From Gammaproteobacteria bacterium (GTDB lineage Bacteria; Pseudomonadota; Gammaproteobacteria; DSM-16500): a stretch of 64,000 bases of DNA. The position numbers and the translations under genes were made by a program. The stretch lies in the NCBI GenBank assembly GCA_035495675.1, contig DATJFK010000060.1, positions 2,797 to 66,796 on the forward strand, in the 5' to 3' direction. Shown piece after piece: positions 36,864 through 38,714 of the stretch. The notes beneath the pieces were generated by a model. That model ran no database searches. It was not told the origin of the DNA and saw only the letters and a list, made by a program, of their open reading frames with translations. The stretch's first letter is position 1. Every line of letters begins with the position of its first letter.

Positions 36864-38714
36864 TTATTGCATGATTCCATGCAGAAGAAACTGCTTGATA
36901 AAATAAGGAGCCTGTTTCACATTTGGCGCACTCATAATTTCCAGCAATTTTTCAGATCCTCGTGCCGCTGACATTGTTTCCGGATACGATATTTCACGAT
37001 GAATCTTGCAGCCTTGCAAGGCGCTTGTTAAATACACGCCTTTCAGATTGAAGCTAGTCTGATTGCTTTTAAATGCATTCAGCATAGCGGCGAATTCATC
37101 TTTGATTTTTTCCACATAAAGCGGGAAATCTTTAATATGCGATCGCGCATATTGATCTCTTTCAAAATGCAGTCGCTGTATAATTTGATTATTCAAAATT
37201 CTGATCAATGCATTAAACCGTTTAATGAAAGTACTGGTCACAAATTCTGTTGAAGGAGACGGCATAGTAACACCCCAAGCCTGCGTTAATTCTTCAGCAG
37301 CACAGTCATTAAAGAAATCCAGAAACCCAGGCAGCAAATCCATTTTTGTTATTGAAAAATAAAATGGAACATCGGCGCCAAATAGATGTTGAATTTCATG
37401 AATTCGATTCACGAGACTTTCTAGCAACTCATCTCGCTGCTTTCTGTCAATCAATTCATCAACAGATATCGTCACTACTATTCCGCCTAAAGATTTTCGT
37501 TTCTGGCTCTTCTTCAGCATGAGCAAGAATGCATTCCAGATTTCATGATTCATCGAAGCGTTATTAACTTTGTCATCAACGTACGCACCTGGTACATCAA
37601 CCAGAACAGCATTCTGCGTTATCCACCAGTCAAAAGAATGAATCATAGGCTGCGGCTGCTTTCGCAGCTTGTTAACTTTCTTGCCTAGAATAAAGTTAAT
37701 ATTCGATTTGGCAACCAAACTGGATTTTCCAGAGCCAGCAGACCCAATCATCAAATACCAGGGCAGCACATCCAGACTCATGCTCAAGCCATTTTTGTTG
37801 ATTCTGTTTTTTTTAATGAAGTTAACCGCACTATTGAAACGATTGCGTAAACGCTGCAAATTTCTTGCGAGAACGTCGTCTTGCAGCACTCTCGCACTTC
37901 CGCCAAAAGATTTGAGCTTGTCGAAAAACGACTGCGATCCTTCATTAACGGCTTCCAGAAACGCACCCAAGGTTGATTTTGATGGAACTGCCATTTGTTT
38001 TGGGCGAATTGGGAACGGCGATAACACTCTGCTCACATTACCGCGATATGATTGTATAAAGCGGTAAAGAAAATTGCTAATTTGCCCTTGCTGTTCATAA
38101 CTAAATTCGTGAGACTCTTCATCATTACGACATCTCATGCCAAAGCTCAAACAAATATACAGAAACTCGACTACATCGATATATTTATCAGGCTCAATAA
38201 CAATGCGTTCCAGAATAATAAAAAAACTTTTTTGAGATGCTGCTTCTGAAAACATGTGGGCCACCAGGCTGTATGGGCCCCACTTGCCAAGACCGCCCCA
38301 TGGTGTGTCACTGATGACATCATCCAGCGCCATACATAGTGCATAGGTTGCAATCGGCACGTATTCATCCAGTGAAACCGCATGATAACGACATGTGAGT
38401 GCTTTTTCCTGAAAGTTGCGTACTTCAGTCAATAACTCAGCCTGAAGCCTGACCAGGTATTGGTGTTCCTTGATGCGCTTCAATTTACCCATCAGGAAAA
38501 ATAAATATGACGCACAATCGACTAGAGGATTCAAACCTGCCTCAGGTAAATGTGTACTTACTGGACTGGCAAACAACAGCTGTGTAGTTGGATCAGTGTA
38601 CGAGACTACAGCATGAATATGCTGATCCAATGATTCAGTTCTATCCTGTTGAAAAGGAATAACTAGCGCTGCGTTCTCATTACTCACTTGCAATTCTTCC
38701 GGAATTGTCGCCAT
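36864..38714 (-). CDS. DotU/IcmH(TssL) - IcmF(TssM) N-terminal domain fusion without TM segments
   Basis: DotU motifs NPLVDCAS, YALC.ALDD, PWG, FF.ILE, EFLYICLSFG; IcmF motifs LPWYLMIGSAGSGKSS, DWW, DVPG, TKMDLLPGF..FF, Q.WG, GVYLTSA.Q, YFIK. Confidence 0.85.
   Translation of the reverse strand: MATIPEELQVSNENAALVIPFQQDRTESLDQHIHAVVSYTDPTTQLLFASPVSTHLPEAGLNPLVDCASYLFFLMGKLKRIKEHQYLVRLQAELLTEVRNFQEKALTCRYHAVSLDEYVPIATYALCMALDDVISDTPWGGLGKWGPYSLVAHMFSEAASQKSFFIILERIVIEPDKYIDVVEFLYICLSFGMRCRNDEESHEFSYEQQGQISNFLYRFIQSYRGNVSRVLSPFPIRPKQMAVPSKSTLGAFLEAVNEGSQSFFDKLKSFGGSARVLQDDVLARNLQRLRNRFNSAVNFIKKNRINKNGLSMSLDVLPWYLMIGSAGSGKSSLVAKSNINFILGKKVNKLRKQPQPMIHSFDWWITQNAVLVDVPGAYVDDKVNNASMNHEIWNAFLLMLKKSQKRKSLGGIVVTISVDELIDRKQRDELLESLVNRIHEIQHLFGADVPFYFSITKMDLLPGFLDFFNDCAAEELTQAWGVTMPSPSTEFVTSTFIKRFNALIRILNNQIIQRLHFERDQYARSHIKDFPLYVEKIKDEFAAMLNAFKSNQTSFNLKGVYLTSALQGCKIHREISYPETMSAARGSEKLLEIMSAPNVKQAPYFIKQFLLHGIMQ

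Follow-up and report, generated by a model that had tools for sequence, protein, structure and literature searches.

A DotU-IcmF fusion without transmembrane helices belongs to a three-gene module with a coiled-coil partner in one gammaproteobacterial family

A stretch of 64,000 nucleotides from a gammaproteobacterial genome (GTDB lineage DSM-16500; assembly GCA_035495675.1, contig DATJFK010000060.1, positions 2,797 to 66,796), hereafter the window, carries an open reading frame (ORF) in which the cytoplasmic domain of DotU (TssL) is joined to that of IcmF (TssM). The fusion has no transmembrane (TM) helix, and with the coiled-coil gene that follows it makes up one form of a module consisting of a second dotU, an icmF without its periplasmic part, and the coiled-coil gene in a single copy. 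Of the 86 genomes of the family, 12 have this module, among them the genome that carries the window (G000, 85% complete). My preferred reading, to which I give a rough probability of 0.45, is that the fusion is the fused, TM-free form of the module and would act as a GTP-controlled adaptor joining the Dot/Icm secretion system to a coiled-coil scaffold. The module is conserved, built from known parts and apparently undescribed: the literature searched (titles and abstracts, with subscription journals mostly outside it) held no description of a DotU-IcmF or TssL-TssM fusion, of a second dotU-icmF copy or of the module itself. The main parts of the locus are these:

36864..38714, minus strand: DotU-IcmF (cytoplasmic) fusion ORF, 616 amino acids (aa), no TM helix; from Pfam, TIGR03348, hydropathy and 10 full-length database relatives.
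38013..38528, minus strand: DotU/TssL cytoplasmic domain, aa 63-234; PF09850, E 1.4e-26, and a model compared with TssL (4v3i_A).
36870..37880, minus strand: IcmF/TssM cytoplasmic G-domain with helical extension, aa 279-615; TIGR03348 and fold matches to Rag, EngB and Arf.
35876..36823, minus strand: coiled-coil protein gene, third part of the module, 315 aa, without the C-terminal tail of the wider family; from co-occurrence and trees.

The original prediction, made from the sequence alone, described an intact 616-codon frame joining a DotU domain to an IcmF NTPase-like domain, and Pfam and TIGR03348 bear this out. The PF09850 match covers model positions 1-166 of 205, and the DotU half scores above its cut-offs (PF09850, 93.8 bits against 27; NF038228, 97.1 against 50). 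Pfam IcmF-related_N matches aa 388-615 (E 5.6e-43) and the TssM model TIGR03348 spans aa 278-612, with scores under the cut-offs for full-length IcmF/TssM proteins (TIGR03348, 244 against 388; NF038226, 83 against 1000). The alignment of the fusion to the IcmF of the same genome stops at IcmF residue 358, and the IcmF TM begins at 377. The fusion, which terminates in ...PYFIKQFLLHGIMQ, thus ends ahead of the IcmF TM position and has no large periplasmic IcmF domain, and a Pfam scan found no IcmF match in the ORF that lies 40 bp past its stop, as expected from the earlier claim that the frame closes at the end of the domain with no periplasmic remnant. Its highest 19-residue hydropathy (KD19) is 1.22, below the 2.68 and 2.13 of the canonical DotU and IcmF of the same genome, and on this basis a TM helix is absent, as had been proposed; the C-terminal TM of DotU is missing as well. 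Because these TM and periplasmic features are lacking, the fusion falls outside the full-length DotU and IcmF families. Neither is it an assembly artefact, since two contigs from another study's run (X5) cover positions 37753-38190, the whole junction, with 0 differences.

The gene had also been described as lying outside any secretion locus. This holds for the ORFs scanned: apart from the fusion, no secretion-system family was found in the 35 window ORFs scanned with Pfam (about ten ORFs at 24-52 kb were read as translations only), and no sheath or baseplate genes of a type VI secretion system (T6SS) were among the ORFs scanned. The original prediction overlooked the co-inherited gene that defines the module. 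The start of the coiled-coil gene lies 40 bp downstream of the fusion stop, and because this conserved partner is present, the fusion gene is not solitary. The coiled-coil protein is predicted to be almost wholly helical, with one helix of 159 residues.

Within the genus, the coiled-coil gene occurs in seven of 38 genomes, and the identical seven carry a second, short dotU/icmF copy. Across the family it occurs in 14 of the 86 genomes; in 12 of them it directly follows a short icmF, within about 55 bp or overlapping it, and in G372 and G374 it stands alone. Eight modules are split and retain a TM in DotU (G014, G045, G049, G050, G341, G375, G380 and G381; weak in G014 and G341), and in these IcmF ends shortly after the G-domain, mostly just beyond its TM. 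The module of G022 is split and has lost the C-terminal TMs, and those of G000, G011 and G383 are fused. A metagenome locus (L054) provides a thirteenth module; two others repeat G045 (L050) and G011 (L055). Compared across genomes, the series from split to fused forms shows membrane anchors being lost step by step, with fusion, reached more than once, at its end. In G049 and G014 (L045, L046) the module lies directly upstream of genes that, judging by their translations, presumably encode Rieske protein, cytochrome b and cytochrome c1, a shared position that is possibly older.

A canonical dotU-icmF pair had been expected elsewhere in the genome and was found on contig C34, encoding proteins of 289 and 1066 aa that are 42% and 34% identical to the respective halves of the fusion. 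It lies a few kb from icmJ and from an ORF that I take to be icmB-like, and further dot/icm genes are on contig C19. Genome-wide, IcmK, IcmJ/DotN, DotM and DotU exceeded their cut-offs, and DotI-, DotG-, DotK- and IcmF-like matches fell below theirs. The canonical locus has the order fis-dotU-icmF and its icmF is assembled in 11 of the 12 module genomes (in G022 the locus is not in the assembly). In six of these 11 (G014, G049, G050, G375, G380 and G381) dotU is absent from the canonical locus, and the sole PF09850 match in the genome is the TM-bearing DotU of the module; G381 is a single contig, 99% complete, and G014 is 100% complete. Canonical dotU is retained in G000, G011, G383, G045 and G341. 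Among the 74 non-module genomes, four (57-76% complete) gave no match and G009 has dotU only, and all 69 of those with icmF have dotU. Canonical dotU has thus been lost in 6/11 assessable module genomes and in 0/69 genomes without the module, which ties the module to Dot/Icm, and the simplest reading would be that the module DotU can partner a full-length IcmF. The fused genomes keep canonical dotU in 3/3 cases, as expected if a TM-less DotU cannot substitute for it; because the fused form never replaces canonical dotU, its own Dot/Icm link is drawn from its relatives.

In trees, the module DotU and IcmF cluster with the family's Dot/Icm copies, apart from the T6SS rows, and PF05943, the T6SS sheath family and the only T6SS family searched genome-wide, gave no match in G000 (85% complete). 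On the tree grouping and this negative an orphan T6SS remnant is rejected.

Several features of the canonical loci stand on their own. The canonical IcmF of the window's genome (L004:7694-10894) lacks the two N-terminal TMs usual in relatives and has only the TM after the G-domain, as is also the case in G050, and three tandem IcmL/DotI-like genes lie in the genome's dot/icm locus (L179:2971-5011). In G049 and G374 canonical icmF is broken up into two or three ORFs (L065:2349-5827, L107:3847-7301), with an N run in G374 and assembly errors possible in both. G355 has two full fis-dotU-icmF loci (L110, L111); this genome is 8% contaminated and is probably a mixed bin.

The branch that separates module from canonical rows has a Shimodaira-Hasegawa-like approximate likelihood ratio (SH-aLRT) support of 100 in both domain trees, which predate the finding of the five modules outside the genus, and 100/100 in the two-domain tree. 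The direction of the duplication differs between quick trees, the outgroup root falling among canonical rows for DotU and among module rows for IcmF. The 13 coiled coils from modules group as a single clade (SH-aLRT 100), sister to two standalone copies from the same family; those two retain the QVQDIAVKAIEG-type tail that the family has at its C-terminus, and all 13 lack it. The DotU+IcmF tree and the coiled-coil tree have three clades in common and agree with each other (Mantel r 0.73, p 0.0002, 13 loci), whereas neither agrees with canonical IcmF (r 0.23, p 0.14 and r 0.01, p 0.45; 11 genomes). Two of the clades mix genera, and flanking genes differ among most module loci. Because the part trees agree mutually and disagree with canonical IcmF, the three genes likely move between genomes as one unit; alternatively, vertical descent with hidden paralogy may account for the pattern. 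A single origin of the fusion was borderline on two domains and 29 rows (0/200 bootstrap trees; approximately unbiased (AU) test, p 0.052) and was rejected on three genes and 13 loci, where the AU p for the three fused genomes as one clade is 0.00013. The fusion thus arose at least twice.

A protein search returned 18 matches among 7999 scored candidates. Ten are full-length relatives of the fusion (594-621 aa, 35-66% identity), and nine of them together with P0013 have both Pfam domains; P0010 (493 aa) has a late start and P0012 (411 aa, from a 2-kb contig) an early stop. P0005 is a fragment that is nearly identical, P0014-P0016 match IcmF only, and P0017-P0018 are T6SS TssL. All ten full-length relatives terminate at the last residue of the window protein or within three residues of it, and none continues into a full-length IcmF. 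For all three module genes, nonsynonymous divergence (dN) in six genome pairs is 0.38-0.73 with synonymous divergence (dS) of at least 1.85 or saturated; canonical genes in the same pairs have dN of 0.46-0.61. Because dS is saturated, dN/dS is an upper bound only, of about 0.37, and a neutral ratio was not seen. In neutral simulations to 67% or 55% identity the frame stayed open in 0/300, and the DotU domain of the fusion is as constrained as canonical DotU. These comparisons, which are of sequences, show purifying selection on the module genes, in line with the earlier view that the fusion is repurposed rather than decaying (strain-level differences number three across four runs, too few for a polymorphism ratio, pN/pS). 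Decay of a duplicate, or an error of assembly, is a scarcely credible explanation of the gene: the early stop of P0012 would fit such an account, and the junction coverage in X5, the ten relatives with the same end and the neutral simulations go against it. On the same three grounds recent truncation is ruled out.

The G-domain keeps its nucleotide-binding motifs, among them the Walker A motif that had been reported as intact:

37020..37028, minus strand: TSA, aa 563-565, which I take to be a G5-like motif; motif comparison.
37338..37349, minus strand: G4 guanine-specificity motif TKMD, aa 456-459; motif comparison and PMC3346141.
37587..37598, minus strand: G3 / Walker B motif DVPG, aa 373-376; motif comparison, described for TssM in the same source.
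37722..37745, minus strand: G1 / Walker A motif GSAGSGKS, aa 324-331; read from the sequence, with G324 and K330 invariant in 12 fusions.

G1, DxxG, G4 and TS[AG] are found in 12/13, 11/13, 13/14 and 12/14 fused rows (the G383 row is mis-cut at G1 and G3), in 14/14, 11/14, 13/14 and 13/14 split rows (P0016 duplicates G341) and in 41/44, 30/44, 41/44 and 36/44 canonical rows, so the module motifs are kept as well as those of canonical IcmF. With G1, G3, G4 and G5 kept, binding or hydrolysis of GTP by the fusion is a putative activity. The AlphaFold model of the fusion has a predicted local distance difference test (pLDDT) score of 63 and a predicted template modelling (pTM) score of 0.49. Its DotU part matches TssL structures at Z 16.5-18.5 (best 4v3i_A, Z 18.5, root-mean-square deviation (rmsd) 2.4, 150 residues aligned), and its G-domain aligns over about 145-175 residues with Rag, EngB and Arf GTPases (Z 9.5-11, rmsd 2.5-3.9). 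As modelled, and with G1, G3 and G4 present, the G-domain has the fold of a TRAFAC-class small GTPase.

Between the two domains lies a further element:

37905..37967, minus strand: amphipathic helix predicted in the linker where DotU would have its TM, aa ~250-270; AlphaFold helix and hydrophobic moment.

The 18-residue hydrophobic moment of this helix is 0.48-0.59 in 12/12 fusions, which ranks it 1st to 41st of about 600 windows per protein, high but not unique. Its net charge varies among the fusions, it is present in the AlphaFold model at pLDDT below 50, and similar segments occur at the N-termini of two split TM-less IcmF copies (P0014 and P0015). The helix suggests that the fusion may attach to the membrane surface. 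The linker had been called hydrophilic, which is right in so far as it has no TM, yet a segment of this kind is not simply hydrophilic. The description of the protein as soluble is likewise uncertain, because the conserved helix could contact the membrane surface.

The coiled-coil protein belongs to a wider family that has no Pfam model and whose members, where looked up, are nearly all named hypothetical. A profile search gave 1007 clusters at E <=1e-10, some of which may be unrelated coils, mostly of about 330-350 aa among the 150 listed. Five of 300 gammaproteobacterial genomes have the family, G000 included. In cyanobacteria there are two paralogues, found in 13 of 101 genomes across the class and mostly adjacent; one is in 86 of 151 genomes of one order, at 43-80% identity outside the closest kin of the query, and the second lies beside the first in 26 of 28 loci read. 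A genome scan using one cyanobacterial paralogue gave no match. The module coiled coil matches this tandem pair (about 325-380 aa) with blastp E-values down to 6e-10 directly and 2e-38 by way of a standalone copy from the family. No dotU/icmF neighbour was found in three other gammaproteobacterial loci, and the cyanobacterial loci, where the starts of ORFs were read rather than scanned, showed none that could be recognised.

Further members of the wider family (L060:6049-6735; clusters P0052 and P0074) occur on a Rickettsia endosymbiont plasmid and in Chlamydiia, Obscuribacterales and Planctomycetes, and one gammaproteobacterium has a tandem pair of the cyanobacterial type (L089:5811-7902). 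In several cyanobacteria two genes precede the pair (L061:2529-3782, L122, L136, L137), the first of them divergent; I presume that they encode a helix-turn-helix protein and an IrrE/ImmA-like peptidase.

The tandem pair is probably ZicK/ZacK. These are encoded by adjacent genes found in about half of 168 genomes, with homologues about 55% identical, and have five and four coils and form filaments along the cell (10.1101/553073). Two adjacent proteins of Nostoc PCC 7120 likewise have five and four coils; their families comprise 68 and 78 rows, with coils that end near aa 320 and aa 333-370 (PMC7002697), which agrees with the tandem pair. The identification rests on frequency, adjacency, identity, size and coil positions, compared by description. 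Names attached to the cyanobacterial and coiled-coil clusters were only 'hypothetical protein', automatic names or none. The module coiled coil has predicted long helices and may form filaments.

If the adaptor reading is correct, a duplicate dotU-icmF would have kept only its cytoplasmic pair and then gained a scaffold partner, and loss of the anchors followed by fusion would have locked the two halves together, packed like the DotU:IcmF-cytoplasmic pair of the Legionella model. This unit would sit on the inner membrane face through the amphipathic helix and bind the coiled-coil protein, a candidate partner of DotU/IcmF domains named by its co-inheritance, which would polymerise like its probable relatives ZicK and ZacK. 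The unit would then be a nucleotide switch between the scaffold and the canonical DotU/IcmF complex, and joining that complex would change the place or time at which the secretion machine is built. A bolder version, which I regard as doubtful, would make of the three genes a mobile unit in which a Ras-like DotU:IcmF pair, cut from the channel and coupled to an intermediate-filament-like protein, serves as a GTP-switched cytoskeletal device that positions a secretion system.

A number of points weigh against the adaptor reading. The six genomes that have lost canonical dotU are kin, with independent losses numbering at least two and probably three. It is from split relatives with a TM that the Dot/Icm link is drawn, and the fused form may have become independent of it. 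Module DotU has changed at many sites that are near-invariant in canonical DotU (G195, for example, is present in 31/31 canonical sequences and is C in 16/21 module sequences). The range of the module is narrow, and with 74 of 86 genomes lacking it, it is not a general pole-finding factor. According to PMC11338181, Rickettsiella is without dotU and icmF altogether, which means that loss of dotU need not bring in a substitute. In the model the two domains are poorly placed with respect to each other, given its overall pTM and the low confidence of the linker, the link from ZicK/ZacK to the module coiled coil is circumstantial, and the binding and activity proposed for the fusion are predictions.

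In a different account the fused module no longer serves secretion and is a self-contained GTPase with a coiled-coil scaffold for shape, polarity or division, its Dot/Icm origin being history only. The locus is far from the dot/icm genes, fused forms have lost all TMs on at least two occasions, both domains carry module-specific substitutions, and in other bacteria the wider coiled-coil family has no dotU/icmF neighbours. I nevertheless consider this unlikely, given that six split relatives rely on the module for their sole DotU, that the DotU domain is constrained like its canonical counterpart, and that all 12 module genomes belong to one family and 11 have an assembled canonical icmF. The dependence of those six relatives also speaks against the decoy suggested in the original prediction, taken here as a decoy or brake that would titrate the cytoplasmic partners of canonical DotU/IcmF and so damp Dot/Icm assembly, with the coiled coil sequestering it. 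Such a role would suit a protein that keeps only the two interacting domains in genomes that all retain canonical dotU, but a pure inhibitor could not be the only DotU, and it has no obvious need for a co-diverging coiled-coil partner; this is a distinctly improbable, weaker reading. Less probable again is export to the host through Dot/Icm, with the coiled-coil protein or the fusion as substrate and the DotU-IcmF unit as its dedicated loading adaptor or as a mimic of a small GTPase. Legionella has known coiled-coil effectors, the G-domain is similar to Arf and Rag GTPases, neighbouring genes in the window look effector-like (a GDSL lipase with a C-terminal extension), and every module copy of the coiled coil has a remodelled C-terminus. 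The fold match, however, is common to all IcmF/TssM proteins, split forms are anchored in the membrane and not exportable, and the wider coiled-coil family is standalone or in tandem in free-living cyanobacteria.

Should the bolder version of the adaptor reading hold, the module would be a hint from evolution at what sort of cytoplasmic partner DotU and IcmF bind, and the naturally TM-free fusion would offer the unsolved cytoplasmic complex of DotU and IcmF (TssL:TssM) in a soluble form ready for study. The module also suggests that a secretion system can recruit a bacterial family of coiled-coil scaffolds. TssM is a 128-kDa membrane protein whose instability hampered work on its NTPase (PMC3346141); the fusion, with no TM and an environmental source, should be easier to purify. 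In Legionella, DotU and IcmF send the machine to the poles, and some further factor is probably bound by their cytoplasmic domains; the module isolates the two domains whose pole targeting, partners and IcmF GTPase role are open questions in that literature (10.1101/315721; 10.1101/2023.03.22.533729), and these statements favour the adaptor reading.

Other features around the fusion are less closely connected with this argument:

36830..36835, minus strand: AGAGGG resembling a Shine-Dalgarno site, 6 nt ahead of the start of the coiled-coil gene and within the 40-bp gap; read from the sequence.
35809..35841, no strand assigned: hairpin of 13 pairs, 35 bp beyond the stop of the coiled-coil gene, a possible operon end; the scanner scored its T-tail on the plus strand.

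A promoter scan gave 9 sites against 9.6 expected by chance. Divergent from the fusion, positions 39025-40434 (plus strand) encode the effector-like GDSL lipase (PF00657), which has a C-terminal extension of 130 aa and weak PlaA/PlaC-like NCBIfam matches below cut-off. Five ORFs of 325-646 aa (41403-42656, 45650-47089, 48060-49244, 49612-50589 and 55682-57622) have no significant Pfam match and are possible Dot/Icm substrates.

Among the closest known systems is the Dot/Icm type IVB system of Legionella, whose DotU (IcmH) and IcmF have the same two domains in the same gene order. A Legionella model places an IcmF-cytoplasmic:DotU pair, with a Ras-like domain, in the 'comma' density (10.1101/2023.03.22.533729), and it is to this pair that the fusion corresponds; in the later journal version (PMC13244404) IcmF is no longer fitted into the channel with confidence. 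The fusion differs from the Legionella pair in being one polypeptide without TM or periplasmic IcmF, in being a second copy beside a normal pair, and in having a dedicated coiled-coil partner gene. With TssL/TssM of the T6SS it shares the TssL fold, Walker A, hhhhDxxG and (N/T)KxD, and TssM hydrolyses both ATP and GTP (PMC3346141). Coxiella burnetii, as described in PMC11338181, likewise has dotU (icmH) beside an icmF shortened by an early stop, far from other dot/icm genes; there it is the sole copy and is described as interrupted, whereas the short copy here is an additional paralogue, conserved and accompanied by a partner gene. Finally, the module coiled coil is homologous to the cyanobacterial pair that fits the published description of ZicK/ZacK (Alr4504 and Alr4505 of Anabaena), but it is encoded by a single gene rather than by a pair whose products form an obligate heteropolymer, it has lost the C-terminal tail, and it is linked to a GTPase domain.

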